DNA from: Dehalococcoidia bacterium
Lineage (GTDB): Bacteria; Chloroflexota; Dehalococcoidia; SZUA-161; SpSt-899
Reading direction: 5' to 3'
Assembly (NCBI GenBank): GCA_041300025.1
Contig: JBGLNL010000001.1
Span: forward strand, 683,888 to 747,887
Length of the DNA: 64,000 nt
The notes under the pieces were generated by a model. The model ran no database searches. It was given only the letters and a program-made list of their open reading frames with translations, and was not told the origin of the DNA. The first letter of the stretch is position 1. Each line of letters opens with the position of its first letter. Shown here one piece after another: positions 28,321-51,599 of this stretch. Both the position numbers and the translations under genes were made by a program.

Positions 28321-28366
28321 GGTGGAGCTGGACGGGATCGAACCGACGGCCTCATGAATGCCATTC
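28316..28366. repeat. att-type direct repeat, left copy (orphan 3' half of tRNA-Ala)
   Basis: tttttggtggagctggacgggatcgaaccgacggcctcatgaatgccattc is identical to 36395-36445. It covers tRNA positions ~30-76 only. Confidence 0.9.
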
Positions 28367-35156: not shown

Positions 35157-35339
35157 TGGTTCCAGGATCGGCGTTTATGAAGCCCATCTGATAGCTTTTT
35201 TTATATTACTTTATAGAAACCATTTTTCACCGAGAGATGTGAATTTGGAATTTTCCATCTCATTCAATACTGTGATACCTGCTATTGATGTGAGCTCTAG
35301 TGGGAGTTCAGATATAGACAGGGTCTGTGAAGAGGAAGC

Positions 35340-35500
35340 TGGTCTTCAGAGCGATAAACCCTGAAATCTGCGCCCACAACATCCGGCACACGGGTTTTTC
35401 ATGGACTTTCGACCGAGGGCTTCCCAGTACTTCAATCTATGGAGGTCCCAAACTTTCAAGCTTGCAGTTGCTAATCGATCGTTTGCAACACCACAGAACA
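35340..35500 (+). pseudogene. Tyrosine recombinase C-terminal fragment (box II region)
   Basis: ICAHNIRHTGFSWTFDRGLP....GGPKLSSLQLLIDRLQHH resembles H-x-L-R-H-T...LGHSSLQTTxRYxH. There is no upstream catalytic core. Confidence 0.4.
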
Positions 35501-35529
35501 AGGGCTGAGGGGAGAAGTCGTGCCCAAGA

Positions 35530-36364
35530 ATGCCCAAATGCGCCAAAAGGGGTATCCGTAAGGACGCCCAAGGCCCAGCTAGTCTTCATCGCGGTCGCTC
35601 CTAAAATCATCCCCCTCAGGATATGTCCCCACGGACTCCTCGTACTTTCTTGCCTTCCTCGTCTCGTCTATGGAATGAGGCGTGTCTATTTGCGTCGGGA
35701 TAGATGCCCCTTGCGCTATTGTGACAGGCTACGCCTGCTGGAAAGGGAGTTCGGAGACAGGCACCTCTGTGAGATCTCTCAAAAGGAGATCCTTGAACAC
35801 CGAAACAGGGTCGCCTCGGAGACTTCAAATCTCACCTCCAACAGAATTTTCATTCTCAAGCAAATTTTCAAGCAGGGAATGGAAATGAACGCGATCAAGA
35901 ACGATCCGGTTGCTGCCATGTCATACCTCAGTGAGAAGAAGCATGTCAGGAACGAGTTCCTCATGCCTCCGGAATCGGATCACCTACTTGAGGCGTGCCA
36001 GAAACTGCGATCAAGAGATTTGTTACCGGCGGCGATCTGTCTGGGAGCTGAACATGGAGCTTCGAAGCAGGAAATCCTGGATCTGAAATGGACCGACATC
36101 GATTTCGAGTTCGAGGGGAGCGCCCGCATCAAAGCCTCGGATATCTTACCCCGGCTGAGGTCCACTATGCTCACTGAGAATCCATATTCAAGGCAATGGG
36201 CATCCACCTTATTTTTCCAATTTTGTGGTCTTGACAATGGGGTCAACCTCAAGGATCTCGCCAGGTTCTATGCGAACTCGAAAGAAACGAAAGAATCTAG
36301 TAAGCTATACAGAAGCCACACAGAGGTCAAAAAGGGGTCTCTGAACAGAAAAAGAGCCGATTAG
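35530..36364 (+). pseudogene. Tyrosine integrase, frameshifted and internally degraded
   Basis: ATG 35530 gives MPKCAKRGIRKDAQG (typical integrase N-terminus), then a stop at 35602. A second frame continues with SAM-like-domain sequence and LDLKWTDIDFE (box I region, Arg lost). The C-terminus is degenerate. It ends 35 nt from the tRNA-Ala 3' end. Confidence 0.6.
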
Positions 36365-36394: not shown

Positions 36395-36445
36395 TTTTTG
36401 GTGGAGCTGGACGGGATCGAACCGACGGCCTCATGAATGCCATTC
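36395..36445. repeat. att-type direct repeat, right copy (inside intact tRNA-Ala)
   Basis: Identical to 28316-28366. Confidence 0.9.
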
Positions 36446-36475: not shown

Positions 36476-36581
36476 CGCAGAGCGCCATCTGCTGTATGTA
36501 GCTTGCACTCGTGCGCGGGATCATCTTCTCGTAACCGGCGTTGAGCCAGCATCAGAGTTCCTGGACGATCTGGATAGATAG
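36476..36581 (+). pseudogene. UvrD/PcrA-like superfamily-1 helicase, C-terminal ~33-aa remnant
   Basis: The frame reads ..ERHLLYVACTRARDHLLVTGVEPASEFLDDLDR*, the helicase motif VI/terminal region. The 5' side is cut off at the tRNA. Confidence 0.5.
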
Positions 36582-36596
36582 GTGCTAAGGGGAAAT

Positions 36597-37370
36597 ATGT
36601 ACAAACTCGCAATTGATAAACTGACGTTTGTGAATAATTTACTGGAATGGTATAATAAGTCTCTTTCTAATCCCAATTCGAAAGTGCTGCCGCATCCCGA
36701 GTATGGTCGCTGGAAGAAGTGGAGCGATGACCGTATTTGGTGTTCTGTATTTTTCAGCATCGGAGTCAAAGGAGGGTCAAGAGCGGCACGGGATTATTTG
36801 GAGTCAATCGAAAAAGGATTGGAAGAATTTGAATTACCGATTGCCAGTCTTACCCCGCTTGAGTTTGGTGATAGAATGCGGAAAATATGGCGATTTGGAC
36901 GTGGATACAATCGTTCAGGAAAGGCGCTGGGGAGATTCTTTAGCAAAGATGAGAATTTCGGAAGAAAAAATAGCTTTGAAAAAAGCATAGCTGAATCTTT
37001 TGGAGTATTAGAAAAACACGGTTTTGCGAAATGGTTTCGGGAAATTTCCGAGTATAATGACGATCGTAAAAAAGCTCATTTCATGGAAGAATTGCCGGGT
37101 GTAGGTCTTAAAGTTTCCCGTGATTTCTTGAATGATATTGGGATGACGAATTCACTAATTGCCCTGGATATTCATGTTCTCGCCGAAATGAGAGACACTT
37201 GGAAATGGGCCGTACCGCCGACTACGCCCAATGATAGAACGATCTATGAAGCGATTGAAGATGGCGTCAGGGCAGTTGCAGAGTCAATTGGAGTGACAGT
37301 TCTTGAAATTGATAAGGCAATATACTTTTCGCGCATGACTGCTGAATTCAGACTAAATAGAAATGACTAA
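36597..37370 (+). CDS. HhH DNA-glycosylase-like protein (archaeal OGG / OGG-fold family)
   Basis: ELPGVGLKVSRDFLNDIGMTNSLIALDIHV resembles the Ogg2-type helix-hairpin-helix block (GIGxKxASxFLRxxG...AIxDxHI). The rest is unrecognised. Confidence 0.55.
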   Translation: MYKLAIDKLTFVNNLLEWYNKSLSNPNSKVLPHPEYGRWKKWSDDRIWCSVFFSIGVKGGSRAARDYLESIEKGLEEFELPIASLTPLEFGDRMRKIWRFGRGYNRSGKALGRFFSKDENFGRKNSFEKSIAESFGVLEKHGFAKWFREISEYNDDRKKAHFMEELPGVGLKVSRDFLNDIGMTNSLIALDIHVLAEMRDTWKWAVPPTTPNDRTIYEAIEDGVRAVAESIGVTVLEIDKAIYFSRMTAEFRLNRND

Positions 37371-37694
37371 ATCAGTATGGGTGTTTCATATTTGTGACCA
37401 TCCTGTGTCCACACCCCGCCAAAAGAGGCGGAAACAGATACAACCAGACAAAAGAATACAAAAACAAAATTTTATCCTTAATTCTTGAGTGTCAACGTAA
37501 TACGCTGGTATGCAATGGCTTGAGGGTAATGTGGTCGGAGAATCCCAGCGCCTCCGCTTTATTGCGCACCGAACTTTATTATCATTTCATTATCGACAAT
37601 TATTCATTTTCTTCTCAAAGTCTAATTTCAAACTGACTCGCAGCCATTCAATATAAGTCATTGCAAAAAACTGAAATTCAACATATTTTTTAAT

Positions 37695-39125
37695 ATGGGC
37701 AGAACGATATTAGACGTTGACCCGCTGATACTTAGAGACCGCCTGCATGCGCTCTTCTTGTGCAGCCAATCGGTTATGAATGTAGCGGTCGAAATGCTTC
37801 TGAAAAGTCACCGGTTCAAAATCAAATTGGAAATAGCTGGCGCAACCAATCCGGGCTATTCACTCTTTATAAAAATAGCCAATAAGTTGAAAGTTGATTA
37901 CATTACTCCGGAAATTCCAGAAGAATTAAGGCCTTTTCCATTGAAATGGATATCAGATAAAAGTACCGCAAATTTAAGAACCTGGATACCGGAGATGAAA
38001 GATAGAGAGGGAGATTATCATATTCTCCTCCCTTTCTATTTACGATATCATCTCGATAAACTGCGGGAACGAGAACCCAATTTCCCCATGCCACAAATCG
38101 ATAACTTGTATTTATTATCCCGCTGGGAAGAATGTTTTGTATACCAGGTTCCATTATCAATAACGGCATTAAAGGATCTTCTTTCCTATGAAAGATTCCC
38201 ATATCTTTCAATCCCATCACCCCTTTTCAGTTTTATCGGGACAGGTTTTGTGGAGCAGCGACTTTTTCGATTGGACGATCTTTCGCAATTATATCTTGGT
38301 TTTTGCAGCGGGCCAGAAAAATGGAACCTTGTCAACGGGGTTGAAATAGAGAAGCACCCCTACAACATGGCATTGAGAAATAAACTCAGTGCGATGACCT
38401 TGCGATCAGGAAATCGCAGGACACCCTCATATCCGGTATTGGTGCGGCATTTTACTTGGGATTTGGAGCAGCTGGGCTTGATTATTGAAAATGCTTCCGT
38501 TCTAAACATGATAAATAAGCATTTGCCGAAGGAAAGAGCGGACAGAATCAGAAACTGCCTTTTATTTAGATTACGTGGCTTATCAGAAGATGAAATCAAA
38601 GGTGAATTGGGTTTTGGGAATCAGGAAGAATACTATGAATGGCAAGTCGCTAACAGGATCAATATCATCTCTAAAGATTACCGTGATCCGTATGATGCCT
38701 GGCAGAATGCCTGTGAGTTTTTTGAAATTGAACCAAATATCGAAATACTGGACAATGTTCAAATCTCGGCAGCTACAAAAGATGAACCGAACGCAAGTGA
38801 TTCCGGGCCGACCGGGATTCAACTCCCTCCGATTACAATCGCCAGGCACTCAGACGGTTTTGCTTCAATCGTAACATCTAATGGCAAATCTATATCATTA
38901 ACCGGGAAACAAGCTCATTTAATATCCAAACTTCACGAAGCATATGTTAACGGCACACCCGAGCTATTACAGGCTCGTTTTATAAACGAAATTTATGGTG
39001 AGGTAAAAGAAAACCGGCTCCAGAAGCTTTTCGGGAACAACGACGCTTGGAACGAGCTTATTGAAAAAGGAAGAAGAAAGGGTCTTATACGTTTGAAAGC
39101 CATAAAACCCGATAATTCGGATTAA
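37695..39125 (+). CDS. Hypothetical 476-aa protein with a possible sigma-70 region-4/LuxR-like HTH
   Basis: The long ORF looks coding by eye. ADRIRNCLLFRLRGLSEDEIKGELGF is HTH-like. No catalytic motif recognised. Confidence 0.5.
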   Translation: MGRTILDVDPLILRDRLHALFLCSQSVMNVAVEMLLKSHRFKIKLEIAGATNPGYSLFIKIANKLKVDYITPEIPEELRPFPLKWISDKSTANLRTWIPEMKDREGDYHILLPFYLRYHLDKLREREPNFPMPQIDNLYLLSRWEECFVYQVPLSITALKDLLSYERFPYLSIPSPLFSFIGTGFVEQRLFRLDDLSQLYLGFCSGPEKWNLVNGVEIEKHPYNMALRNKLSAMTLRSGNRRTPSYPVLVRHFTWDLEQLGLIIENASVLNMINKHLPKERADRIRNCLLFRLRGLSEDEIKGELGFGNQEEYYEWQVANRINIISKDYRDPYDAWQNACEFFEIEPNIEILDNVQISAATKDEPNASDSGPTGIQLPPITIARHSDGFASIVTSNGKSISLTGKQAHLISKLHEAYVNGTPELLQARFINEIYGEVKENRLQKLFGNNDAWNELIEKGRRKGLIRLKAIKPDNSD

Positions 39126-39248
39126 TCTTAAAATTTCTGTGGGTGACAGCAATTCACCCAGAAAACTCCCCCAAAAAAACGTCGATTTCGCCTAACCACC
39201 CAGGTATACACCCACGTAGCTCCCCACTTGGTGTATTAGTCTCCTTGC

Positions 39249-39506
39249 ATGAAAAAGGGACGATTATTAGATGATCGTTTAAGGCGCAGTAATAATGGCG
39301 AGCAAGCTATTTCATCCCCTAATTGCGCCGGATTGGAACATCAAGCTGTGAAGGAGCCCTCATCGCCGGGGGATAATTTCACATTTAAAACCATTGAACT
39401 CGCCCCGCTGGACGACCAAACACTCGATCTTGAGAACTGGTTAGCCGGTCTTTTTGTCGAATATTGGCTGTCAAAAGGGCGAGCAAGTCAAAAGGAGATA
39501 GAATAA
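39249..39506 (+). CDS. Hypothetical 85-aa protein
   Basis: The ORF abuts the next gene (stop TAA 39504-39506, ATG 39507). No motif recognised. Confidence 0.35.
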   Translation: MKKGRLLDDRLRRSNNGEQAISSPNCAGLEHQAVKEPSSPGDNFTFKTIELAPLDDQTLDLENWLAGLFVEYWLSKGRASQKEIE

Positions 39507-39740
39507 ATGAACGCAGAAGTCTATAAAACATCTGACATCGCGTTGGCGGCTTATTTGTCGATGCAGGGATTTTCTATACGGGGGGTGGCATTTAATGGCG
39601 ACCGAAGATCTGTCTTTCAGTTCGAAGATGAACCGGGTTGCCAGGAACATGTCCTGAGATTTTTCAACCGCAATACAATGGTTGAACCAATCGCTTTTCT
39701 TGACCATGTCAAGAGCCTGAAGGCGATGATTAAGCAGTAA
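39507..39740 (+). CDS. DUF5659 domain protein
   Basis: YKTSDIALAAYLSMQGFSI...DRRSVFQFED......F....MVEP..F...VKSLKAMI matches the DUF5659 pattern common in phages and mobile elements. Confidence 0.6.
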   Translation: MNAEVYKTSDIALAAYLSMQGFSIRGVAFNGDRRSVFQFEDEPGCQEHVLRFFNRNTMVEPIAFLDHVKSLKAMIKQ

Positions 39741-39779
39741 ATAATAATCTGATGAGATGTGATGATATGAAAATTCGGT

Positions 39780-40526
39780 ATGAAAACAAGTGATAAAATT
39801 GTCGGGGGACTGGGAGCATCTTCGGAGCTGTCCAAAAAGCTACATCACCCGGGACCGGATATCAGGCCATGTGTGGCACAGATGCTTGAATCCTCATATA
39901 CAAAGGGGGATTATCCCAATCGGAATGCCGCGGCTCATATAATCGCTTGTGAACTTAGGCGAATCGGGTGTTCTCATGATGAGGTCCTGCAGCGAATAAT
40001 AGCATGGAATGATGGAAATACCGCGCCATTAAGTATATCTGAATATTCCAAGGCGGTTCGCAGTGCATTTGCCAAAGACTATAATTATTCCTGTTATCAT
40101 CATTTCTTAGAACCGACTTGCATTGGACCCGACGCATGTCCGTTTTCATCAAGAGTTAAATCGAATCAGAAATATTATAACAATAGAAAATTCATTCGAT
40201 ACCGCTGGCCAGAATTACTTCCTAATGTAGCCATATTGATATACTACATAGCATTAATTGAGCTCGAAAGAATACGGCAGGTCGGGGCAGGGGGAATGAT
40301 ATACGCCAGTTATCGGGAGATCGCCAAATTATGCGGGGTAAATCCCGGATCAATTATGAGAAATCTGGCTATACTGCAAAGCCATGGCCTGATTGAATTG
40401 AAAATTGGAACCCCGCGAAAGTGGGAGAGAAGCGCAACCGAGATAAGGCGCGTTATTCCCATTCCGAGACCATCACAGAATTTATTGAGGAAACTATATG
40501 ATGAAAAACCATACACAGAAAAGTAA
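39780..40526 (+). CDS. PriCT-like domain plus winged-HTH protein (putative replication/regulatory protein)
   Basis: NRNAAAHIIACELRRIGCSHDEVLQRIIAWNDGNTAPLSISEYSKAVRSAFAKDYNYSC resembles primase C-terminal (PriCT) domains. C-terminal YREIAKLCGVNPGSIMRNLAILQSHGLIE is wHTH-like. Confidence 0.45.
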   Translation: MKTSDKIVGGLGASSELSKKLHHPGPDIRPCVAQMLESSYTKGDYPNRNAAAHIIACELRRIGCSHDEVLQRIIAWNDGNTAPLSISEYSKAVRSAFAKDYNYSCYHHFLEPTCIGPDACPFSSRVKSNQKYYNNRKFIRYRWPELLPNVAILIYYIALIELERIRQVGAGGMIYASYREIAKLCGVNPGSIMRNLAILQSHGLIELKIGTPRKWERSATEIRRVIPIPRPSQNLLRKLYDEKPYTEK

Positions 40527-40582
40527 GTTTTCCACACACATTAAGACAGTATCCAATATTTATATAAAGGGGATTATTTCTT

Positions 40583-41098
40583 ATGTCTGTTAATCATTCA
40601 AAAGTAATGCCTTTGAATTTAAAAGAGCTGTTCGGAAGAGAATATAAAATTGAAATAGACGAATCTGCGAATTGCCCTGGTGAGAGTAAAAGCGATCCGT
40701 GGTATTATCGGGTCGCCTGTAAATACGGCCATATATATCCCTATTCCGACAAAAGGCTCGGATTTTATTGCGAAAGCGGAAATATCCGAAACCGTCTTCG
40801 TCAGGAGCATCCTGAGATTGATGTCTTTAATTGGAGTGATGACGGCGGGGCAGTCTTCCTGTTTCCCGTTGGACTTTTTAAACTAATATCCGGCTACGCC
40901 AAACCGAGGCAAAAACGGAGACTATCCCAGGAGCATCGCCGAAGACTGGAATTAGCGGGACAGCGATACAAATTTAAACCTTTAAAACATGGGTCTGAGA
41001 GCGTGAAATCGACTCAAATTTCAACGAAAGGAGTCGGGGTAGTAATAGGGGGGAGATGGTCAGGCCAGAGAAACGCGCTTGGAGATTCAAAAAGCTAA
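40583..41098 (+). CDS. Hypothetical 171-aa protein (mobile-element associated)
   Basis: DPWYYRVACKYGHIYPYSD...PRQKRRLSQEHRRRLE pattern. No function known to me. Confidence 0.4.
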   Translation: MSVNHSKVMPLNLKELFGREYKIEIDESANCPGESKSDPWYYRVACKYGHIYPYSDKRLGFYCESGNIRNRLRQEHPEIDVFNWSDDGGAVFLFPVGLFKLISGYAKPRQKRRLSQEHRRRLELAGQRYKFKPLKHGSESVKSTQISTKGVGVVIGGRWSGQRNALGDSKS

Positions 41099-41288
41099 TT
41101 TGAGGGATTAAAATGATGTTGAAATTCATTAGGCATATTCACCTGGTAAATTATCCGCCAGCGAGTGACAACAATTGCCATTTAGGATTCGCTCGTAAGG
41201 CACCATCCGATAGAATGTTATCGAATAAACGTATCACCAGGGAATTGGTGATAACCCTATTGATTTCGAATTGTATAGCAGGGGGTAT

Positions 41289-41870
41289 ATGGGCATGCCA
41301 GTAGGCAAAGGGGTCTGGTATCCCAAGACAAGAACGAGCGAGTGCCTCCAGATTGATATGGCATATCTGAACAAGCATTTTGACCTCGAAAAAGAACATT
41401 CGGCTACTATGTCGTGGACAGGCAGTTTTGGCAAAAGGGACCGCGTTTGTATTCGTATTGAACCGCCCGGGTTTATCAGGCTTATCTACACTATCACCAA
41501 GAAGTCAGGCGAAAAAATTGATATGAATTACCGAGTTTATATGGATATGACTGAGTGTAATTTAGGTGGAATACGATACTGGTTTGTCTGCCCAATATGT
41601 CAAAGAAGATGTCGCGTAATATATCTCCCTCCCGGCGGCCATCGCTTTACGTGTCGTATCTGTAACAACCTGACTTATGCCAGCACTCAGGAAGGCTATC
41701 CGAGATGGAAGGCGATACAAGAAGCGACCTTCATGTTGCCAAAATGGGAAAGACAGTATTTCAGGGCCAGGTCAGATAAGAAACGCCAGCGATTGCTAAA
41801 AAAGATGAGACGGGTTGAATCAGGTTTGAAAGCTTTTATTGCCTGGAGCAAACGAGTTCTTAGAGAATGA
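41289..41870 (+). CDS. Hypothetical zinc-ribbon protein
   Basis: GGIRYWFVCPICQRRCRVIYLPPGGHRFTCRICNNLTYAS (CPxC...CRxC). Family members are often found beside recombinases. Start choice (41289 versus TTG 41271) is uncertain. Confidence 0.45.
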   Translation: MGMPVGKGVWYPKTRTSECLQIDMAYLNKHFDLEKEHSATMSWTGSFGKRDRVCIRIEPPGFIRLIYTITKKSGEKIDMNYRVYMDMTECNLGGIRYWFVCPICQRRCRVIYLPPGGHRFTCRICNNLTYASTQEGYPRWKAIQEATFMLPKWERQYFRARSDKKRQRLLKKMRRVESGLKAFIAWSKRVLRE

Positions 41871-42139
41871 TAGAACATATGTTCCTATCGATACATTGAC
41901 AGAAATTAGGCATAATGAATTATGAATATTTTATATGTATGTATGCAGGTATTTAATGTTTTTGGTTGACAAAAGAGATAAAAATGGCGATATTAATAAT
42001 GCTAAAGTAATCAAATGTCTGGCTATTTTTGTGTACGAAAGTTTAGCCCGAGCCGGTTTTCTTGTAGCTGGACTGATTACTTTAGCAATAATCTCCGGTG
42101 AAACTGGCTTGGGCTTTATATTTAAGAGGCGGTGATGAG

Positions 42140-43837
42140 ATGAAAGAAAATGTAGCCGTTTATTTCCGATGTAGCACTGATAAACAGGACAATTCGATTG
42201 CTGATCAGCGGAGAATAATCGCTGAGCATGCCATCAAAAATGCTATGCAAATCACGACGTGGTTTGACAAAGACGAAGGGAAATCAGGAACCAGCTTCGA
42301 AAAACGTCCTGATTTTATGAAAATGGTGAAAATTGTGGAATCTGGCAAAAATGATTTCACACGTATCCTCGTTTATGATGTCGATCGATGGGGGAGACCG
42401 ATTGACCCTGACGAATCGACATATTGGGAATACCATTTCAAACGGTACGGAGTTCAGGTAACATATATTTCCGATGAGTCAATTAATGATAATTCTCTGG
42501 CCGGAAGATTAACGAAAAAGATCAAACAGGAACTTGCCACCGAGGAAAGCCGAAAACAATCTCTAAGAGTCCGTGAACGGTCAAAGCTGAGGGCTGCTGA
42601 GGGATTCCGTGTCGGGGGATATGCACCATATGGATATAAACGACTTTTGGTTGAGGCGAATGGAACGCCGATCAAGGTATTGGAACATGGCGAGCGGAAA
42701 TACGAAAAGCATCAACGAGTGATATTGACCCCGGGGAATCCGGAAGAAATAAAAGTGATTAAGAGAATATTCATGCTCAGAACAAAGGGGTATGGTTATA
42801 AATCTATCGCAAATATGCTTAATGAGCGGAATACCCCGTCCCCAGGTAAATTAAGAGGCAATATAAAAAGGGAGACGAAATGGTCAGCCGGTTCAATTCG
42901 GAGCATAATCAGAAATCCAGTATATAAAGGCGACTGGACCTATAACCGGCAAGTTCGTGGCAATTGGGTTAAAGATGAGACGCCAGATATATATTTCCAT
43001 CCCGTAAGCGAGCATATTAATCACAAGAACTCTCATAGCGGCCTTATTTCGACTGAGCAATTCGACCAAGCCAATTCGATTAGGAACTACCAGCCCGGAC
43101 GCCAGACTGTATATAGAAATGGAAGATCGGCATATCTTTTGTCCGGTTTGATTAAATGCAAATCCTGTGGTTATTGTTTCCAGGGCCATATACATAGGAA
43201 TAAATATGGCGAATGGAGATACTATGAAGACGGGGGTTTCTATAGTCGCGGATCATCGGTTTGTTCGTCCTTTCATATTCCCAAAGAATTGATTGAAAGC
43301 TTTGTAATAAAGGAAATAAAAAGGAAGGTTTTTTCGGCAGTGAATATTTCGAGATTGGAATCTCTGATTGAGCAACGACTGATAGCCTATAAATCACTGA
43401 CTCCAGATAATTCCAGGATTGCCAAACTTGAGGGCGAGCTTGCAGATGTAATTGGTCGGCTTGAGAATATCAAAGATGGCATTGAGAAGGGACTGCCGAT
43501 GGACTTTATAGGCGACCGGATTACCATGCTTGAACGTCGGAAACAAGAATTGGAGGCGGAGAAAACCTCGCTACAGAAGAAGGTTGGTAATGGTATAGAT
43601 GCAAATGAGTTTCGACGATCAACATACAATTATCTTGATGAATTTGACAGCGCATTCCAAAATGCGTCGAATATTAAGAAAAAAGAGCTCTTACATGCGT
43701 TTGTTAATCGAATTGAAATAGACAAAAGTCAAGGTGTAGCAACCTGTTACATTCACAAAATACCATCAGAAGTTAAAGTCTATCAATGCCGGAGGTCGGA
43801 CTTGAACCGACATGATGTTGCCATCGGGGGATTTTGA
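42140..43837 (+). CDS. Large serine recombinase
   Basis: VAVYFRCSTDKQ (catalytic Ser), DVDRWGR, a recombinase domain, a zinc ribbon CKSCGYCFQG, and a C-terminal coiled coil (LEGELADVIGRLENIKDG..). The last 17 codons are antisense to tRNA-Leu. Confidence 0.85.
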   Translation: MKENVAVYFRCSTDKQDNSIADQRRIIAEHAIKNAMQITTWFDKDEGKSGTSFEKRPDFMKMVKIVESGKNDFTRILVYDVDRWGRPIDPDESTYWEYHFKRYGVQVTYISDESINDNSLAGRLTKKIKQELATEESRKQSLRVRERSKLRAAEGFRVGGYAPYGYKRLLVEANGTPIKVLEHGERKYEKHQRVILTPGNPEEIKVIKRIFMLRTKGYGYKSIANMLNERNTPSPGKLRGNIKRETKWSAGSIRSIIRNPVYKGDWTYNRQVRGNWVKDETPDIYFHPVSEHINHKNSHSGLISTEQFDQANSIRNYQPGRQTVYRNGRSAYLLSGLIKCKSCGYCFQGHIHRNKYGEWRYYEDGGFYSRGSSVCSSFHIPKELIESFVIKEIKRKVFSAVNISRLESLIEQRLIAYKSLTPDNSRIAKLEGELADVIGRLENIKDGIEKGLPMDFIGDRITMLERRKQELEAEKTSLQKKVGNGIDANEFRRSTYNYLDEFDSAFQNASNIKKKELLHAFVNRIEIDKSQGVATCYIHKIPSEVKVYQCRRSDLNRHDVAIGGF

Positions 43838-43870
43838 GTCCCCTGCGTCTACCAGTTTCACCACTCCGGC
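43787..43870 (-). tRNA. tRNA-Leu(CAA), class II long variable arm, CCA not encoded
   Basis: The reverse complement is GCCGGAGTGGTGAAACTGGTAGACGCAGGGGACTCAAAATCCCCCGATGGCAACATCATGTCGGTTCAAGTCCGACCTCCGGCA. Perfect 7-bp acceptor stem and anticodon loop CU-CAA-AA. Confidence 0.9.
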
Positions 43871-43875
43871 ATTAA

Positions 43876-44532
43876 GGCCTAAACCATTTTACATTCCGCA
43901 TATTAAACATACCGAAGGCAAAATCCAAAGAACTGATTCCAAATATCCGTCGGGCCGCTCAAGGCGAAATGCCTCTCCCGTTGGAAGAACTGTACCTCAC
44001 ATGGCAACCTTTGGGGATTAAGGGGAACAGGCAGGATGTCTTTGTGGTGGGCATTCCCAAAGAGCCCATCGACCTTCTCATTGCAGCTTTAGAGAAAGCC
44101 AGAATCAAGCCATATATTCTGGATCTTAAAGCGCTGGCATTGGCCAGGGCAATTAATTGTCGCAATGGCTTGATACTGGATCTCGAACCTGATAATTTTG
44201 GGATTACTGTCGTGGCCGAGGGCCTTCCTTCCATTATGCGAACCTTCATCCCTAAGAAGGGCGAGATGATTCTGGAAGATAATGTGCGACGCTTGGGTGG
44301 AGAGATCGTCCGAACTATGGAATTCTACAACCGCGAGCATGCCGAGAATCCAATAAGCGCGGATACGCCAATCTATCTGACCGGGGAAACAGCTGAGTTA
44401 CCTGATGCAACGGTGATCATCCAGGAGGAAATTGAATATCCCCTCAAAAAACTGGTATTCCCATTTGCACACGATCCGGCTTTCCCGATCGCTTCGTATG
44501 CAGTTAATTTAGGGCTTTCCCTGCGCGGTTAA
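43876..44532 (+). pseudogene. pilM: Type IV pilus assembly ATPase-like protein PilM, missing its N-terminal ~90-130 aa
   Basis: The frame opens 5 nt after the tRNA-Leu 5' end. ..FRILNIPKAKSKELIPNIRRAAQGEMPLPLEELYLTW... is the middle of PilM. No start codon or RBS precedes the conserved sequence. The track ORF starts at an internal ATG (43969). Confidence 0.65.
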
Positions 44533-44571
44533 CATGGAAGTTGTCATATCTTTGAATAGGAGAGCAGAATT

Positions 44572-46518
44572 ATGAAACTTCGAGGTGGCGACAAACCGAT
44601 AGTTACTTCTACCGGATTTCGGGACATCCGAATCAATCTATGGGGAGAAAAATATGGCCCTAATCCCAAGCCAGTGGGACTGGTATTGCTAATAATTATA
44701 GCGATAATAGCCGTAGGTGGTTTATACCCAGCATATCTATGGGAAACCGATGTCGCTGATAAAACCTCCAGTATGCAAAATGATCTGGACGAACTTGAGA
44801 AAAATATTGAGAGATTAATGCGACCTCCTGAGGAAGAAAGTGAGTTAGCAAAGCTCGAAGCCGAGATTGATGTTCTGCGATCTGCTCGTGAAGCTATAGA
44901 AGGTGACTATGGGCATTTCGTGGGGACGATAAAGGCGGTAAACGATACGATGCCCCCGACAGCTTGCTGGACGTCTATCACATTGGACTCTGACACTATT
45001 AGTTTGAAGGGCGATGCCGATACTCCCTCAGGATTGTTTGCCATTGCCAGGGCTTTTGAAGAACGCAGTGAATTTGAGGCAGCTAATATCAGAAATATAG
45101 GGACAACTGAGCAAACAGGGAGAGCAATGAGCGTTGAGGTAAAAGACGCCGGGAGCGTGGAGGTTACTCAAATGCTGCTGGCGACTGGAGAAAATATACT
45201 CTCCCCAGTGGGGCCGGGATCATTTTCATCCGAACTCATTAGCGATCCAATCGAAAGTGAGAGCGGTCATGAAGCTTCCACAAGTGGAGGGGCAACAATT
45301 GAACCCTATCATCAAATATCTACCATAAGTGCTCAAATAGTCAGCGGGAACCTCTGGGAACCGCCGGTTACTATTAAATTCAGCGGGACGGCCAGCTTTT
45401 ATTATCCTATAGACAAATACAAATGGGAATTCTCGGATGGGGCAGTAAAAGAGGTGGATTTGGGGGACCCGGGCCCCAAACAATTACCCATTTCAACAAT
45501 GCATACCTTTACTGCGGAAGGTGATGCTTCAGCGAATCTAACGGTAATCGATGATCATGGATGGAAGGTATCAGCTACCAAAGGAGGAATATTTGCCACA
45601 GCCGATACCGATTTCATCGCCGAACTGGTCTCCTGCGATAATCCGCTGAAGTTAAGATTCAAACCACAAATCATTTCGGCAGAGAAAATTACTTCCTATA
45701 AGTGGTACTTTGGAGAAGATGAGGAGGAGGAGGAGGAGGAAGGGGAAGCAGTTAGTAATGAACCGGATAGCACCGATATGATGCCAATTCATACTTTCGA
45801 TAAGGTGGGTGAATATACTGTGACTCTGACTGTATCAGGCCAACTGGATAAGCCCATATCCATAAGCCATATCGTGACAGCCAGCGGGACACCAACAGCC
45901 GATTTTTACCCCGAACGGTTAACGGGGGAAGAAAAGTTTACGGTCCGTTTCGCAGATGCCTCTGTTCCCGATGGAGATACGGATTCTAAAGGGAACGCAC
46001 ATCAAATAGTTCAGTGGGAATGGGATTTTGGGGATGGAACTACACTTAGCGGGTCACCAAATCCTGTTCATGCCTATGTTGATAATGGGCCTTATGCCGT
46101 GACACTCAAAGTCTGGGAATCGGATGCTAACTGTGCCCTTATTACTAAAACCATTCAGGCATGCGATTCGAAATATAGCCAGTTCTTTGTTGAACCCGGA
46201 AACGGTGAGATGAAAATTGATTTCTCGGCCCCTCTGTCGCAATCAACAGGTATAGATTTCCTCTGGGATTTTGGAGTGATTGATAAAGATGGCAATCCTG
46301 TCACTTCCACACAAGCCAATCCTTCATATAAATACGATTACAGCGGAACCTATCATGTAAGCTTAAGAATCACCGAAGAAAAGAAATCTACCGATCTAGA
46401 GGTGAAGAGGCTGGTAAGCTTTATAAGTGCGGATATTAATATTATAAGTTCAACTTCAACATCTTTCAGCTTAGATGTAATACCCGCAGTCCCCGCAGAA
46501 GAAAACGGGAAAAGCTGA
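44572..46518 (+). CDS. PilN/PilO-like membrane protein fused to several PKD-like domains
   Basis: N-terminal single TM plus coiled coil (as in PilN). At least 3 PKD-like modules (e.g. WEWDFGDGTTLSGSPNPVHAYVDNGPYAVTLKV). Poly-Glu tract from (GAG)6 at 45721-45738. Confidence 0.6.
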   Translation: MKLRGGDKPIVTSTGFRDIRINLWGEKYGPNPKPVGLVLLIIIAIIAVGGLYPAYLWETDVADKTSSMQNDLDELEKNIERLMRPPEEESELAKLEAEIDVLRSAREAIEGDYGHFVGTIKAVNDTMPPTACWTSITLDSDTISLKGDADTPSGLFAIARAFEERSEFEAANIRNIGTTEQTGRAMSVEVKDAGSVEVTQMLLATGENILSPVGPGSFSSELISDPIESESGHEASTSGGATIEPYHQISTISAQIVSGNLWEPPVTIKFSGTASFYYPIDKYKWEFSDGAVKEVDLGDPGPKQLPISTMHTFTAEGDASANLTVIDDHGWKVSATKGGIFATADTDFIAELVSCDNPLKLRFKPQIISAEKITSYKWYFGEDEEEEEEEGEAVSNEPDSTDMMPIHTFDKVGEYTVTLTVSGQLDKPISISHIVTASGTPTADFYPERLTGEEKFTVRFADASVPDGDTDSKGNAHQIVQWEWDFGDGTTLSGSPNPVHAYVDNGPYAVTLKVWESDANCALITKTIQACDSKYSQFFVEPGNGEMKIDFSAPLSQSTGIDFLWDFGVIDKDGNPVTSTQANPSYKYDYSGTYHVSLRITEEKKSTDLEVKRLVSFISADINIISSTSTSFSLDVIPAVPAEENGKS

Positions 46519-46528
46519 GGGATCTTTA

Positions 46529-46652
46529 AAAAATAAGTGGTGACTTCAAGAGGCTGGGGGAGTCGTTCCTCCAGCCTCAAAAAAACCCAGGATAGAATAT
46601 CCGCCTTTGGGAGGATTGGGGGGTATAAAGGAATTAATAAGAGGTTCCCTGA
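46529..46652. repeat. Degenerate MITE-family copy
   Basis: aataagtggtgacttc..ctggggg..tccagcctc....attggggggtata...aagaggttccctga is colinear with the 51468-51575 copy. It ends 3 nt before the pilT ATG. Confidence 0.55.
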
Positions 46653-46655
46653 ATA

Positions 46656-47732
46656 ATGAGAATAGATGATATGCTGCGCCTGACGGTGGAGAGTAATGCT
46701 TCTGACCTCCATCTGAGAGTAGGAATACCGCCGGTTTTGCGTATCGACGGCAAGCTTGTTTCCCAATATCAGATACCGGAGATGACGCCGGAGGGAATGA
46801 AGGAAATACTGGAGAGCATAACCAGCAAGGAGGAAGCAGCAAATTTTTACCGGGATTGGGAACTGGACTTTGCTTATGCCCTTGAAGGCGTCAGCCGGTT
46901 CCGGGTAAATGCACATTACCAGATGGGAACAATTGCCATGGTGTTCCGCACAATCCGAAACGAAGTACCTTCCATAGAGGATTTGGACCTGCCTGAAATT
47001 TGCAAGGACATGGTTCTCGAGAGCAACGGAATGGTTATCGTGACCGGGCCTACCGGTTCCGGTAAATCTACTACCCTTGCTGCTATGCTGAGATATCTGA
47101 ACGAAAGAGTGAGTGCTAAGGTAGTTACCATTGAAGACCCCATAGAGTATGTTCATACAGATAATCAATGTCTTTTCATCCAGCGAGAGGTTGGAAACGA
47201 TACGCATGACTTCGCGGCTGCCCTCAAGCACTCGCTGCGCCAGGACCCTGACGTTATCATGGTCGGAGAGATGCGTGATCTGGAAACAATTTCTACAGCG
47301 CTAACTGCGGCGGAAACAGGACATCTGGTCCTGACTACGTTGCATACCCCCGGTGTGGCTCAAGCGATGGATCGAATGATCGATGTCTTTCCGCCACACC
47401 AACAGCAACAAATTAGACTCCAAATTGCTCAGACAATTAAAGGAGCCCTTTATCAGTGTCTGGTACCATCTATTCAGGGGGAGGGCCGCGTAGCTGCCGT
47501 AGAAGTGTTAATAGCCAACACCGCCGTTAGAAGCATTATCCGGGAAGGAAAAACCCACCAGTTACTAAATTGTATTGAGACGGGAATGGAATATGGCATG
47601 CAGACAATCGACCAGGCCCTTGTAGACCGCTACAAAAGAGGGAAAATCAGCAGAGATATGGTACTAGAATGGTGTAGAGACCCAATGGAAACCAAGCGAT
47701 CACTCGATGCCATTTTGTTAAAACAGAAATAG
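46656..47732 (+). CDS. pilT: Twitching-motility ATPase PilT
   Basis: ASDLHLRVGIPPVLRIDG and Walker A GPTGSGKSTT. 358 aa. Confidence 0.9.
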   Translation: MRIDDMLRLTVESNASDLHLRVGIPPVLRIDGKLVSQYQIPEMTPEGMKEILESITSKEEAANFYRDWELDFAYALEGVSRFRVNAHYQMGTIAMVFRTIRNEVPSIEDLDLPEICKDMVLESNGMVIVTGPTGSGKSTTLAAMLRYLNERVSAKVVTIEDPIEYVHTDNQCLFIQREVGNDTHDFAAALKHSLRQDPDVIMVGEMRDLETISTALTAAETGHLVLTTLHTPGVAQAMDRMIDVFPPHQQQQIRLQIAQTIKGALYQCLVPSIQGEGRVAAVEVLIANTAVRSIIREGKTHQLLNCIETGMEYGMQTIDQALVDRYKRGKISRDMVLEWCRDPMETKRSLDAILLKQK

Positions 47733-47765
47733 CAAATTTATCCCAGCTTGACTCAAGGAATATTC

Positions 47766-47805
47766 AACTTGCCATGTGGAAAAATCTGCATGGCAAGTTT
47801 CTTTA
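47766..47805 (+). terminator. Intrinsic terminator after pilT
   Basis: aacttgccatg-12nt-catggcaagtt followed by tcttt. Confidence 0.65.
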
Positions 47806-47942
47806 AGTCCCCTCTTTGTATTAACAAAGTTAACTTCTTTGCTTTGCATGTACAGGGCTTGCCAAAGACTTGCCGTTTCATGGATAATCTGGAAGGATAG
47901 CAAAGCGAATGAACCGAATAACGGATTCAAGGATAACTGAGC

Positions 47943-49013
47943 TTGACAGATTTATCAATAATTATTCCTACATACAACGAAGTTGAGAGTTTGCCTTTCC
48001 TTGTCGACCGGATACATAACTGTCTGGCTGGTTTCGATTACGAACTGGTAGTGGTTGATGATAACAGCCCTGATGGCACCGGTGCTCTGGCAGAAGAACT
48101 CGCCCGGCAGAAACCGATAAAGGTAATTCATCGCAAGGGGAAACTGGGGCTTGCCTCCGCGGTTATTGAAGGTTTTCAGCAGGCTTCAGGCGATATCATT
48201 GGCGTAATAGATGCAGACCTTCAGCATCCCCCTGAACATATCCCGGAAATGTTCAAGGCAATGGGAAAAGCTGATATCGTTATCGCCAGCAGATACGTGA
48301 AAGGGGGCGGCACCGAAGGATGGACCTTTATGCGGGAATTCATCTCCCGGGGCGCCAGGCTTATCCCGCATTTCCTTTTTGCCAAGATCAGATATATCAA
48401 AGACCCTCTTTCCGGTTTTTTCCTCTTCCGTAAAAAAGTGATCGCAGGCGCTACTCTGAATCCGGTTGGATACAAAATCCTGCTGGAAATCCTGATCAAA
48501 GGCAACCATGCCGACGTAGTCGAGGTGCCTTATGTCTTTAAGGGCAGGGAGATGGGAGTAAGCAACTTCAACACCACTGAACAGATCAATTATCTCAAGC
48601 ATATTTATCGCCTGATACGAAGTGAAAGAGAGACCGAGAGGTTCATCAAGTTCTGCATGGTAGGCCTTAGCGGTGTCGTGGTCAATTTAGGAATTCTGGC
48701 ACTTCTGACAGAGGTGGCCGGGTTGTTCTATGCCTTCTCGAACGCTATTGCTGTTGAATTGTCCATCATCAATAATTTCGCGTGGAACGAGGTGTGGACA
48801 TTCCGTGACAGGCGAACTTCAGCGCATCGATCAGTTGCAGGCCGCATGATGAAGTTCAACCTGGTATGCCTGATGGGGTTTGGCATAAATGAAGGCATCC
48901 TGATTCTCTTCACTGAGATCGCTGGTTTGTACTATATATTGTCTGCAATACTGGGCATAATTGCAGCTACACTTTTCAACTTCATATTGAACAAGTGGTG
49001 GACGTGGAAATAG
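47943..49013 (+). CDS. GT2 polyprenol-phosphate mannosyltransferase-like enzyme fused to a GtrA-like membrane domain
   Basis: IIIPTYNEVESL, VDDNSPDGT and DADLQHPPE. C-terminal 4-TM GtrA-like RFIKFCMVGLSGVVVN. TTG start. Confidence 0.85.
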   Translation: MTDLSIIIPTYNEVESLPFLVDRIHNCLAGFDYELVVVDDNSPDGTGALAEELARQKPIKVIHRKGKLGLASAVIEGFQQASGDIIGVIDADLQHPPEHIPEMFKAMGKADIVIASRYVKGGGTEGWTFMREFISRGARLIPHFLFAKIRYIKDPLSGFFLFRKKVIAGATLNPVGYKILLEILIKGNHADVVEVPYVFKGREMGVSNFNTTEQINYLKHIYRLIRSERETERFIKFCMVGLSGVVVNLGILALLTEVAGLFYAFSNAIAVELSIINNFAWNEVWTFRDRRTSAHRSVAGRMMKFNLVCLMGFGINEGILILFTEIAGLYYILSAILGIIAATLFNFILNKWWTWK

Positions 49014-49023
49014 GAGACATAAC

Positions 49024-49608
49024 ATGAGCGATGATTTCATGAAAAGTGCACTTGACAGAGCCATGGAGCGGGCTGACCGGATACAGGTGCCGGAAGAAAA
49101 GCTCCGGTTAATGGAATCCCGTTCAGAGGGGGAGCGGCTGGCAGCCAGTTTTCTCAGGAATCCGGAGTATGATCTTGGTGCTGCGTTAAATAGCTGCGAT
49201 CCCGGAACAAAACAATATATATCAAAGGCACTGGAATCCGTTCTATTACAGAACCTGGTACTTCCGAAAAGGGAATCGGATATAGCCGGTAATGCAAAAG
49301 CATTCGAAGGACTCTCCGCTATCAAAAAAAATAAAAATGCAATTCAGCAAGCCGTGGAACAACTGGAAAACCTTTCGAACTATTATTCTCAGGCAAGGAA
49401 GCAGCACTATGAGCAGTTAAAAGCTCATTTAGAGCGGGCGCTGGCCCAGCAAATACGGCAACAAACGGGGTTGGCTTCCACCGGCAATATTAACGTGGAG
49501 CAACGCCCCGAGTTCCAGGAAAACTGGCGAAAGATTTCAGCGCAACTTGATGGGGAATATGATAAAGCGCTCGCTCAATTGAAGGAACAAATAGCTTCAG
49601 TGGATTGA
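49024..49608 (+). CDS. Hypothetical coiled-coil protein
   Basis: 194 aa, helical, with no motif recognised. Confidence 0.4.
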   Translation: MSDDFMKSALDRAMERADRIQVPEEKLRLMESRSEGERLAASFLRNPEYDLGAALNSCDPGTKQYISKALESVLLQNLVLPKRESDIAGNAKAFEGLSAIKKNKNAIQQAVEQLENLSNYYSQARKQHYEQLKAHLERALAQQIRQQTGLASTGNINVEQRPEFQENWRKISAQLDGEYDKALAQLKEQIASVD

Positions 49609-49639
49609 GAGGAAAGCGGTAAGCCGGTATCGCTTACTG

Positions 49640-51142: not shown

Positions 51143-51209
51143 TTTATATGCCTCTCTGCTGGAACTGATAACGCCCCAGTTTGCTTCTTATTGTAACGGC
51201 ATTGGGCCT

Positions 51210-51467
<258 letters not shown>

Positions 51468-51575
51468 TTAAGGAACCTCTGAATAAGTGGTGACTTCGGG
51501 GGTCTGGGGGTGTCCCCCCAGCTTCGATCTTCCCCCAAGATTGGGGGATAGAGGGGGTTGATCAGAGGTTCTTAA
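51468..51575. mobile_element. MITE-like element, best-preserved copy (108 bp)
   Basis: Terminal inverted repeats TTAAGGAACCTCTGA / TCAGAGGTTCTTAA. Internal G/C hairpins (ctgggggtgtccccccag; tcccccaagattggggga). TA dinucleotides at both tips. Confidence 0.7.
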
Positions 51576-51599
51576 CAAAGTACGGACTTACATACTCAA

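Follow-up and report, generated by a model that had tools for sequence, protein, structure and literature searches.

The stretch of 64,000 nucleotides analysed here (the window) holds the gene of a large serine recombinase whose reading frame runs for 51 nt into the neighbouring tRNA-Leu(CAA) gene, on the opposite strand (Table 1). This raises the question of whether the overlap is an accident of where a reading frame happens to stop, or whether it reflects the way in which the recombinase inserts its element into the chromosome. We consider it likely that the latter is the case, and that the window contains the right-hand junction (attR) of a serine-recombinase element located in the 3' part of tRNA-Leu(CAA), whose attP lies inside the recombinase gene. 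The overlap had been noticed in a first-pass annotation, and comparison of the frame with the limits of the tRNA (43786-43871 according to ARAGORN) confirms it. The annotation was also right that the acceptor strand and the T arm are covered, but it understated the rest: starting at the discriminator and the 3' strand of the acceptor stem, the overlap takes in the entire variable arm, not a part of it, and continues along the 3' strand of the anticodon stem to include five of the seven bases of its loop. The same recombinase/tRNA junction recurs at 99.8-99.95% identity in L252 and L253, which are independent assemblies.

Table 1. Positions in the window of the features of the junction and of the element fragment
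Feature	Position	Strand	Remarks
Large serine recombinase gene	42140-43837	+	565 aa, called gene (P0001)
tRNA-Leu(CAA), class II, intact	43787-43870	-	Rfam RF00005, 51.2 bits; cloverleaf fold, position mapping
Overlap of recombinase ORF and antisense tRNA-Leu	43787-43837		51 nt, discriminator to anticodon loop
Recombinase stop codon TGA	43835-43837	+	Complementary to tRNA U33-C34-A35
Approximate attR (P arm, core, B' arm)	43769-43822		Outer limits estimated; geometry from attP forms
P-arm distal motif GAAGTTAAAGTC	43769-43780		Within codons for ..EVKV..; same position as GGAGTTAAAGTC in L243
TGCCGGAG, discriminator and acceptor 3' strand	43787-43794		Probably supplied by the element; block retained in L241, L242, L243, L461, L463
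Predicted crossover dinucleotide GT	43795-43796		tRNA nt 65-64, where acceptor and T stems meet; axis 9/10 in four Leu-type attP sites
Last 13 codons, SDLNRHDVAIGGF	43796-43834	+	Probably host-encoded; follow the host tRNA in every integrated relative
Integrative-element fragment, left side missing	36478-43794	+	Low G+C, Pfam, identity to other assemblies
UvrD-type helicase gene remnant, last 104 nt	36478-36581	+	Left breakpoint 36477/36478
Element gene, 257 aa	36597-37370
Element gene, 476 aa	37695-39125
Element gene, 85 aa
Element gene, DUF5659	39507-39740
Element gene, PriCT_1/HTH	39780-40526
Element gene, 171 aa
Element gene, 199 aa			Zinc-finger-like; followed by the recombinase gene
Native tRNA-Leu leader, 13 nt	43871-43883		Breakpoint 43883/43884 removes native promoter

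Judged by its domains, the enzyme is a complete large serine recombinase: it has three Pfam domains and a coiled coil, and its modelled fold extends to about residue 541. The longest version of its frame (42098-43837, + strand) has a GTG start and encodes 579 aa, of which residues 19-169 match the Resolvase domain (PF00239, 1.9e-21); the Recombinase (PF07508, 3e-21) and Zn_ribbon_recom (PF13408, 8.9e-09) domains were also detected. The motif YFRCSTDKQ points to a resolvase-type catalytic domain with an active-site serine, and the PDB matches are resolvase-domain structures. In the AF2 model, long helices at residues 382-521, which form the coiled coil, are followed by two strands, and the pLDDT falls below 50 over the tRNA-encoded tail at the C-terminus; the frame ends in ..VKVYQCRRSDLNRHDVAIGGF, then the stop. 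The protein is predicted to be the enzyme that performs integration and excision at att sites.

An open frame of this extent says little in itself, the chance of 17 stop-free codons being about 0.44 ((61/64)^17), and we attach significance to the overlap not because of its length but because antisense tails recur in relatives. Within a set of 114 homologous recombinases (30-77% identity), a relaxed peptide pattern of an antisense T loop was found in 61 tails, versus 1-7 of 114 in internal control windows, and a strict pattern in 44 tails versus none in the controls. At the DNA level, the stop codon lies inside an antisense tRNA in L001 (tRNA-Leu-UAA), L081 (Glu) and five loci with tRNA-Met (L003, L163, L164, L165 and L166); the frame of L004 runs through an antisense tRNA, and L460 and the remnant L305 show the overlap as well. 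The pairing of the stop codon with the anticodon loop is also seen in L001 (TAA, tRNA-Leu-UAA) and in L003, L163 and L164 (TGA, tRNA-Met-CAU). Tails of integrated copies track variants of the host tRNA, for example CRRPDSNRH.. with a GGCCGG/CCGGC T stem, and tails belonging to different tRNA targets are unrelated in sequence. The short peptides VKV and SV, located in an otherwise variable linker, coincide with DNA motifs. DUF5659 is the only cargo common to family members. The first-pass annotation had named two findings that would speak against a meaningful overlap, a conserved earlier stop in the homologues and the same tRNA-Leu neighbour in element-free relatives; no homologue has such a stop, and the neighbour in element-free relatives is a different one. 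Taken together, these comparisons indicate that the overlap is not a chance read-through.

Additional evidence comes from relatives in which the recombinase gene is not followed by a tRNA; in L241-L243, for instance, ARAGORN detected none. These tRNA-free relatives retain the first 10-13 nt of the tRNA 3' end within the ORF and then have a different tail: L241, L242, L243, L461 and L463 retain TGCCGGAGGTC(G/C), and L082, L083 and L169 retain TAGCGGGG.., before they diverge. In six of them, an inverted repeat of 7-12 bp, located 14-27 bp from its axis, surrounds a common centre, which falls between positions 9 and 10 in four Leu-type sites and between 8 and 9 in two. The repeat is perfect over 12 bp in L243 (GGAGTTAAAGTC and GACTTTAACTCC across the core), 10 bp in L242 and 9 bp in L082, in each case 15-27 bp to either side of one of these two axes. 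To test the predicted axis, L461 and L463 were retrieved once the model had been stated; in both the best axis is 9/10, with runs of 7 and 9. Among random sites, runs of at least 9 occurred in 13 of 2000. The best axis of L241 is 6/7, off the common centre, and L083 has no clear symmetry. The repeat motifs vary by subgroup, yet they change together on both arms. Integrated copies (the window, L460, L001 and L305) have only the left arm, which in the window is the P arm; this matching left arm leads us to predict that the crossover occurred at the GT dinucleotide given in Table 1. The tRNA-like block, the left arm and, in free forms, the right arm are all located within the recombinase frame.

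The spacing of a further motif can be compared between the two kinds of sites. In serine-integrase sites, structural work has shown that the distal motif is shifted inward in attB. In L242, L461 and L463, the motif C(C/A)GACA occupies positions 27-32 of the P' arm. Its counterpart in the tRNA, at 21-26, is closer to the core by 6 bp; for L243, the sole available attP form of the window's subgroup, the shift is 2 bp, not 6. The six tRNA-free sites with a common centre have the layout expected of serine-integrase attP sites, and we regard them as putative attP forms. There are also hints that the free-form tails may matter as protein: L241 and L243 share a conserved tail although their codons differ by synonymous changes, and the last 8 residues of P0013 are modelled by AF2 as a strand (pLDDT ~79, versus <50 for the tRNA-encoded tail). 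A scan of viral contigs for the exact P arm of the window gave no matches.

Based on these data, we propose the following course of events. The attP would be about 50-55 bp long and be embedded in the terminal codons of the recombinase gene, in the order distal arm GAAGTTAAAGTC, copy of the tRNA end TGCCGGAG, central GT and second arm, the latter consisting, in the free element, of the enzyme's own C-terminal codons and stop. Exchange at GT with the chromosomal tRNA would restore an intact tRNA, with the element contributing the last 8 nt and the trailer, and would at the same time join the recombinase frame to antisense tRNA sequence. With attP in the last codons, it would therefore be the complement of the tRNA that encodes, after insertion, the final 13 amino acids and the stop: the integrated recombinase would end in ..VYQCRR followed by SDLNRHDVAIGGF, with residues 553-565 and the stop being host DNA, and excision would bring back the element's own tail. 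The left end of a complete element is predicted to consist of the displaced TGCCGGAGGT followed by the P' arm (GACTTTAAC-like). For the window's element itself, we infer the exact crossover, and for this organism the tail swap, from the comparison of sequences. The first-pass annotation had offered two explanations as alternatives, an attachment site within the 3' end of the recombinase gene with exchange of C-terminal residues, and targeting of the tRNA end through a short identity. The repeats of the tRNA-free relatives and the left arm in the window support the former, and the latter holds as well and is compatible with it, the identity being 10-13 bp around a 2-bp core without long direct repeats.

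On this model, one enzyme would exist as two C-terminal isoforms depending on the state of integration, and the effect of the tail on directionality is directly testable. We think it rather improbable, though worth considering, that the tail swap is a built-in switch. The free enzyme, with its conserved C-terminal strand, would then be suited to integration, and the integrated isoform, with its disordered tRNA-encoded tail, would have a different activity, stability or directionality. If true, such a switch would allow the state of integration to be sensed without a separate directionality factor, comparable to the integration-dependent immunity of mycobacteriophages.

The window contains only part of the element. 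The fragment stands out by its G+C content (0.39-0.45 versus ~0.49) and is 99.8-100% identical to L252, L253 and L374-L379. An element extending over 36.4-43.8 kb, as first annotated, has to be revised, because its left edge is a breakpoint within a UvrD-type helicase gene that is whole in other assemblies: in L374-L379, the DNA further to the left encodes a UvrD helicase of 690 aa and a type III-like methyltransferase. Extending the element further leftwards through relatives of the helicase was tried; these are widespread and not syntenic. On the other side, the DNA of L252 and L253 continues past 43883 with TATATT..TTGACA and then genes for a penicillin-binding protein and TyrRS, and the window continues with a truncated pilM, not the native tRNA flank. 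This native flank (promoter, penicillin-binding protein, TyrRS, TPR, Big_5) is common to L252, L305 and L460 despite their different elements, and the tRNA is therefore chromosomal. The breakpoints 36477/36478 and 43883/43884, like a further one at 51246-51582, may be genuine or may stem from the assembly. Lacking both a left end and the native right flank, the window copy cannot excise as it stands. A type I restriction system is present in the element of L460.

The truncation also explains why the window contains no attL with the displaced tRNA 3' end, since the two edges cut the helicase gene and the tRNA promoter. In agreement with the first-pass annotation, a search of 36.4-43.8 kb for the tRNA 3' segment (exact matches of at least 12 nt) gave no second copy, and TGCCGGAGGTCGG has no copy near the low-G+C left edge (36.4-36.6 kb, allowing up to 3 mismatches). 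This lack had been ascribed to the short core of serine recombinases; the missing second att site is owed mainly to the left breakpoint, more than to the type of enzyme. Likewise, up to ~10 kb of left flank of L001, L003, L166 and L460 did not contain the 10-nt repeat that would be expected from the tRNA end, and the elements of integrated relatives may be longer than the flank searched. Direct and inverted repeats were absent from integrated relatives except for an 11-nt repeat in L004, which we rejected: it is located inside a 563-aa ORF, and the attP rebuilt from it lacks symmetry. A search for an empty site in the same species found none, the species representative itself carrying the element; tRNA-Leu genes that are not accompanied by a recombinase occur in more distant Zixibacteria.

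The absence of an encoded CCA from tRNA-Leu, correctly noted in the first-pass annotation (UUG follows the discriminator), is probably not a scar of integration. We rejected that idea on the grounds that CCA-less tRNA-Leu genes also occur in several Zixibacteria/FCB relatives, some of which have no recombinase. At the recombinase-free Zixibacteria locus L286, the 3' half of the tRNA is identical to that in the window and is directly followed by what appears to be its own terminator. A tRNA-Leu terminator inside the window's recombinase gene is unsupported (z = 0.64), and a tRNA terminator in that position is clear in the Met-targeting subgroup. In the integrated state, the 3' end of the recombinase gene is antisense to a transcribed tRNA.

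Other explanations of the junction have to be weighed against an attP inside the recombinase gene with exchange at GT. The crossover might have taken place at, or just past, the tRNA 3' end, so that the whole tRNA would be host DNA, the frame would be swapped from residue 550 rather than 553, and the TGCCGGAGGTCGG block in tRNA-free relatives would merely be a similar protein-binding half-site. The lack of a tRNA-end repeat at the far side of integrated relatives fits this idea, as does a weak palindrome, TATCAATTGATA, that arises when 43786 is joined to 36609. However, the axis of the attP forms is located at 9/10 in four cases and 8/9 in two, not at 0, and the partner at 36609 is not significant: the best inverted match of the attR region within 36.44-36.90 kb is 15/22, a score reached in about one third of shuffles. 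We rejected this match, which in any case lost its relevance when the left edge turned out to be a breakpoint, the DNA around 36609 running in other assemblies into the helicase gene and not into an element end. We therefore consider a crossover at the tRNA 3' end improbable.

Still less probable is a trivial read-through, in which the frame simply met no stop before the edge of the element and the overlap is unconnected to the attachment site. The frequency with which 17 codons stay open by chance, the low pLDDT of the tail and the dissimilarity of tails between tRNA targets are all what it would predict; it does not account for a tRNA-like block and a repeat arm that lie in frame in free and integrated forms alike, for VKV and SV at the positions of DNA motifs in a variable linker, for an overlap in about half of the family, or for the lack of a conserved earlier stop in any homologue. 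Finally, the tRNA-Leu could be carried by the element, whose true end would be 43883, where two right flanks start: the DNA is identical up to that point and then continues with pilM in the window and with the penicillin-binding protein gene in L252 and L253, and contigs with an intact pilM resemble an empty site. Against this, L305 and L460, which come from other Zixibacteria and have a remnant or a different element, share the promoter and the penicillin-binding protein/TyrRS/TPR flank, their similarity extending past the 13 nt of leader. Moreover, the window lacks the 5' part of pilM altogether, which means that an insert of this kind would be longer than 43 kb and contain ordinary genes. 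The conserved promoter and flank synteny led us to reject an element-borne tRNA, which we consider very unlikely.

An attP inside the recombinase gene has several implications. The family would represent a broad, uncultured clade of serine integrases acting at tRNA 3' ends (30-77% identity; Leu, Met and Glu). Serine integrases are widely used tools for genome engineering, and the antisense-tRNA tail offers a simple signature by which the target of an enzyme can be told from its protein sequence, with paired attP/attB candidates readable from public contigs. Since the elements contain restriction and defence genes, they probably act as vehicles for defence islands in the lineages concerned.

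The window's enzyme has the same Resolvase, Recombinase, zinc ribbon and coiled-coil regions as the phiC31, Bxb1 and A118/LI-type integrases. Its family also shares with phage serine integrases an inverted-repeat attP around a central dinucleotide, the lack of long direct repeats, and a distal motif that in attB lies closer to the core. To our knowledge, the large serine integrases of phages have an attP that does not overlap the integrase frame, and an attB that is either intergenic or within a protein-coding gene. Unlike these, the window's family has its attP in the last codons of the gene and targets a tRNA 3' end that needs rebuilding. The tyrosine-integrase island next door, at tRNA-Ala, also occupies a tRNA 3' end and restores the tRNA, but is flanked by a perfect 51-bp direct repeat (28316-28366 and 36395-36445), as opposed to ~10-13 bp at the serine-recombinase junction.

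Integrases of SSV1-type archaeal viruses resemble the window's system in having the att site in their own recombinase frame, a tRNA as target, and a gene that is altered by integration. They are tyrosine recombinases whose gene is split into two large parts with a long shared core. The window's family, on the other hand, has a serine enzyme of which only the last 13 to ~30 codons would be exchanged, leaving the catalytic protein whole.

In the mycobacteriophages BPs and Brujita, among others, attP lies in a coding frame and attB overlaps a tRNA, so that integration replaces a C-terminus and host sequence supplies the new stop (PMC9262239). There the repressor is affected, the integrase is a tyrosine enzyme and the demonstrated effect is that a degradation tag is lost; here it would be the recombinase itself. 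Integration of serine recombinases into tRNA genes is described as rare in the available text of PMC3218068, which names phiRSM1 (tRNA-Ser) and eight Mycobacterium AICEs (tRNA-Leu), and in which no overlap of a recombinase frame with a tRNA is reported for either. phiRSM1 resembles the window's element in that a serine recombinase targets a tRNA 3' end, and differs in that its enzyme is small and resolvase-like, unlike the large recombinase of the window. The window's clade also differs from phiRSM1 and the AICEs in belonging to uncultured Zixibacteria, FCB-group and other lineages and in using Leu, Met and Glu tRNAs.

The first-pass annotation had claimed that the recombinase reading frame runs 51 nt into the strand antisense to tRNA-Leu(CAA), and the gene call, read against the ARAGORN and Rfam predictions, gives the same overlap. 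Cloverleaf mapping places its start at the tRNA discriminator and upholds coverage of the acceptor 3' strand and the T arm; what had been described as part of the variable arm is the whole of that arm, after which the frame follows the 3' strand of the anticodon stem into the anticodon loop. The recombinase carries all three Pfam domains of large serine recombinases and, judged by these domains and by the anatomy of its site, it belongs to this class. The chance of 17 open codons is about 0.44, so the length of the overlap is unremarkable by itself; the argument is built instead on what related recombinases show. The recombinase-tRNA junction recurs in independent assemblies.

Features of the window and of the database loci (L numbers) fetched for comparison
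Feature	Position or locus	Strand	Remark
Last 104 nt of UvrD-type helicase gene	36478-36581		3 nt from tRNA-Ala
Recombinase, longest frame	42098-43837	plus	C-terminus ..VKVYQCRRSDLNRHDVAIGGF, then stop
Recombinase, called gene, 565 aa	42140-43837	plus	identical to P0001, the window's protein in the homologue set
Left arm GAAGTTAAAGTC	43769-43780		window; whole arm 29/31 identical to L243
tRNA-Leu(CAA)	43787-43870	minus	ARAGORN and Rfam agree
Recombinase stop TGA	43835-43837	plus	complement of tRNA U33-C34-A35 (cloverleaf mapping)
Truncated pilM	43884-44532		lacks about the first 75 codons
Stop within antisense tRNA-Leu-UAA	L001		fetched DNA
Stop within antisense tRNA-Met	L003, L163, L164, L165, L166		fetched DNA
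Stop within antisense tRNA-Glu	L081		fetched DNA
Frame reads through antisense tRNA-Glu	L004		fetched DNA
Left arm GTGCCGGTTA	L001		integrated copy
Left arm TTTTGTCAG	L305		integrated remnant
Type III-like methyltransferase and UvrD/GajB-like helicase	L374:1-3610		PADLOC MTase_III, 5e-272
Full type I restriction system	L460:1-6903		
Hairpin and U-run	L165:2990-3062	minus	z = -4.2
Hairpin and U-run	L082:6290-6365	minus	z = -4.0
Hairpin and U-run	L460:11590-11670	minus	z = -2.9

A protein search found 390 homologues, mostly of 550-600 aa, many of which end in antisense-tRNA peptides (CRRSDLNRHDVAIGGF, CRRPDSNRHDVAIGGF, ..AGAGLEPATFGL, ..AEEGLEPPTRGL, ..MPEVGIEPT and ..SSGGRT). The strict peptide pattern of an antisense T loop occurs in 44 of 114 tails and in 0 of 114 internal windows, and the relaxed pattern in 61 of 114 tails versus 1-7 of 114 internal windows. 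In the fetched DNA the recombinase frame enters antisense tRNA-Leu, tRNA-Met or tRNA-Glu genes, and the arrangement is likewise present in L460 and in the remnant L305. On this sequence comparison, the overlap with an antisense tRNA is a family trait. The conserved part of the protein stops at ..ATCYxxKIP among the homologues, and AF2 places the last strands of the window recombinase at residues 522-528 and 533-538, with pLDDT <50 for residues 545-565; therefore, the tail sequence is set by the target tRNA and not by the protein fold.

In the window, L001, L003, L163 and L164 alike, the stop complements U33 and the first two anticodon bases, reading TGA for CAA and CAU and TAA for UAA; an anticodon beginning with CA or UA guarantees a stop in the recombinase frame. 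The organism belongs to Candidatus Zixiibacteriota. At L305:5004-5477, from a different Zixibacteria MAG, only the last ~157 codons of a related recombinase are kept beside tRNA-Leu; this element has decayed, yet its attR, the right junction, survives.

Five homologues (P0009, P0010, P0013, P0019 and P0025) have CRRS in common and then divergent tails, and on their contigs (L461, L463, L241, L242 and L243) the tRNA is absent at that position. These contigs retain TGCCGGAGGTC(G/C) in frame, which corresponds to the discriminator, the acceptor 3' strand and the first T-stem bases. The Met-targeting subgroup behaves alike, L082, L083 and L169 retaining TAGCGGGG.. before parting from the tRNA of L165 and L166. 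In L242 and L243, the recombinase is flanked by element-type genes on both sides. When each site was scanned for inverted repeats, with positions numbered from the discriminator complement (T1), L243 showed a perfect 12-bp repeat (GGAGTTAAAGTC ... GACTTTAACTCC) and L242 a perfect 10-bp repeat (GTGTCGGTAA ... TTACCGACAC), both lying 15-27 bp off an axis between positions 9 and 10. The axis falls between 8 and 9 in L082, which has a 9-bp repeat, and in L169. L461 and L463, fetched afterwards as a test, both gave a best axis between 9 and 10, with runs of 7 and 9 and arms TTTTGTCAG / CTAACAGACAAAA and TTTTGTCTG / CAGACAAAA; at random control sites a run of at least 9 occurred in 13 of 2000, the axis being one among 32 tried. 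L241 and L083 fitted the symmetry model poorly in the same scan, and the window's own subgroup contributes one attP example (n = 1). The repeat motifs vary by subgroup, yet both arms change together, and integrated copies retain the left arm only. We conclude from these comparisons that the tRNA-free sites are probably attP and locate the predicted crossover. With a common inverted-repeat axis in frame, they support the first of two explanations offered earlier, namely that attP lies within the 3' end of the recombinase gene.

Carried over from the attP axis, the central dinucleotide in the window would be GT at 43795-43796 (tRNA nt 65-64). The element would thus contribute TGCCGGAG and the trailer, and DNA from 43797 onward would be host; the protein boundary would fall between ..VYQCRR and SDLNRHDVAIGGF, so that 13 residues and the stop would be host-encoded. 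The motif C(C/A)GACA occupies positions 27-32 in L242, L461 and L463 versus 21-26 in the tRNA. In the geometry described for serine integrases, reportedly from structural work on a Listeria enzyme, the distal motif of attB is set a few bp closer to the core than that of attP, and the tRNA-side copy here is likewise closer to the core than the attP-side copy. The predicted 10-nt repeat was not found in integrated relatives (left flank up to ~10 kb), no excision product was seen, and no empty site was found in the same species.

At L243:6317-8834, an IS insertion has removed the catalytic N-terminal part of the recombinase, with HTH_Tnp_1 and rve genes lying directly upstream, and attP is intact. 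At L241:11109-11306, a second tRNA-Leu-like block (TACCGGAGGTCGGG) lies beyond the recombinase stop, followed after 8 nt by a 13-nt fragment (TTGGTGGAGCTGG) that matches the tRNA-Ala 3' end exactly, CCA included; these blocks look like an array of tRNA-end fragments.

As the first-pass annotation stated, tRNA-Leu(CAA) has no encoded CCA. This is probably not an integration scar, since several recombinase-free Zixibacteria/FCB tRNA-Leu genes are also CCA-less; one of them, L286, has a 3' half identical to that of the window tRNA, and an apparent terminator of its own comes immediately after it. In L460 and among the Met-targeting elements, the tRNA strand carries a strong hairpin with a U-run immediately past the tRNA 3' end, inside the recombinase coding sequence; there the tRNA seems to receive its terminator from the element. 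Such a hairpin is absent from the window's own copy (z = 0.64).

The window holds no second junction, and a repeat search within it, in agreement with the earlier inspection by eye, returned no other copy of the tRNA 3' segment. On the left, six contigs with an identical 257-aa gene match the window from 36478 onward only, and extend left into genes for a 690-aa UvrD-type helicase and a type III-like methyltransferase. On the right, L252 and L253 are 99.8% identical to the window as far as 43883; beyond it they have the tRNA promoter and the PBP, TyrRS, TPR and Big_5 genes, a flank common to L305 and L460. The pilus operon is intact in eight other contigs, whose match to the window is limited to 43884-51452; there, full pilM encodes 290 aa and follows T2SSE, T2SSF and a 214-aa gene, all three of which are missing from the window. 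At least three breakpoints (36477/36478, 43883/43884 and 51246-51582) set the window apart from all other same-population assemblies, which are 99.5-100% identical to it on one side of each only. They cut the UvrD-type helicase gene, the tRNA-Leu promoter and pilM, and, in the third case, leave a 206-nt rpoC fragment beside a small inverted segment. Two of the breakpoints are close to minus-strand tRNA genes, 3 and 13 nt upstream of them. Judged by these edges, the window copy is only part of an element, and the region around it has been either rearranged or misassembled. Because its edges are breakpoints inside a fragmentary copy, attL, the left junction, is not expected in the window, and the first reading therefore found none. 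The native TTGACA/TATATT promoter of tRNA-Leu is gone beyond the breakpoint (43871-43905, minus strand), and TGTAAAAT in the pilM-derived upstream sequence could be a putative extended -10 element.

Cargo varies by element: the window's element has a methyltransferase and helicase, and L460 carries a type I restriction system; the UvrD/GajB-like helicase is found at 68-86% identity across many phyla. This variety fits a possible role of the elements as defence-gene carriers. A neighbouring island of ~8 kb is bounded by a perfect 51-bp direct repeat (28316-28366 and 36395-36445), which takes in 47 nt from the 3' end of tRNA-Ala(GGC), with its CCA, and 4 nt of trailer. It holds two GT4 glycosyltransferases, two GH130 genes and an ORF (35327-36364) with an LKWTDID-like motif by eye and no Pfam match. 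This is the classical long-repeat tRNA-island signature, with which the serine-recombinase junction contrasts. Integration of serine recombinases into tRNA genes is described as rare in published work, with phiRSM1 and eight Mycobacterium elements as examples (PMC3218068). In a literature search of incomplete coverage we found no description of a serine integrase with attP in its own last codons; one may exist elsewhere.

L243 (..DFNSELYIVSTLKL..) and L241 (..DFNKELIVTTQLRL) resemble each other in their free-form tails, although five of the residues in common are specified by different synonymous codons. AF2 predicts the last eight residues of P0013 as a strand (pLDDT ~79) and the tRNA-encoded tail of P0001 as disordered. 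These two sequences and a model hint that the free-form tail may belong to the protein and be lost on integration. The nearest demonstrated parallel to such a tail swap is the integration-dependent immunity of mycobacteriophages. In these phages attB overlaps a tRNA and attP is within the gene for the repressor, which loses a C-terminal tag on integration (PMC9262239).
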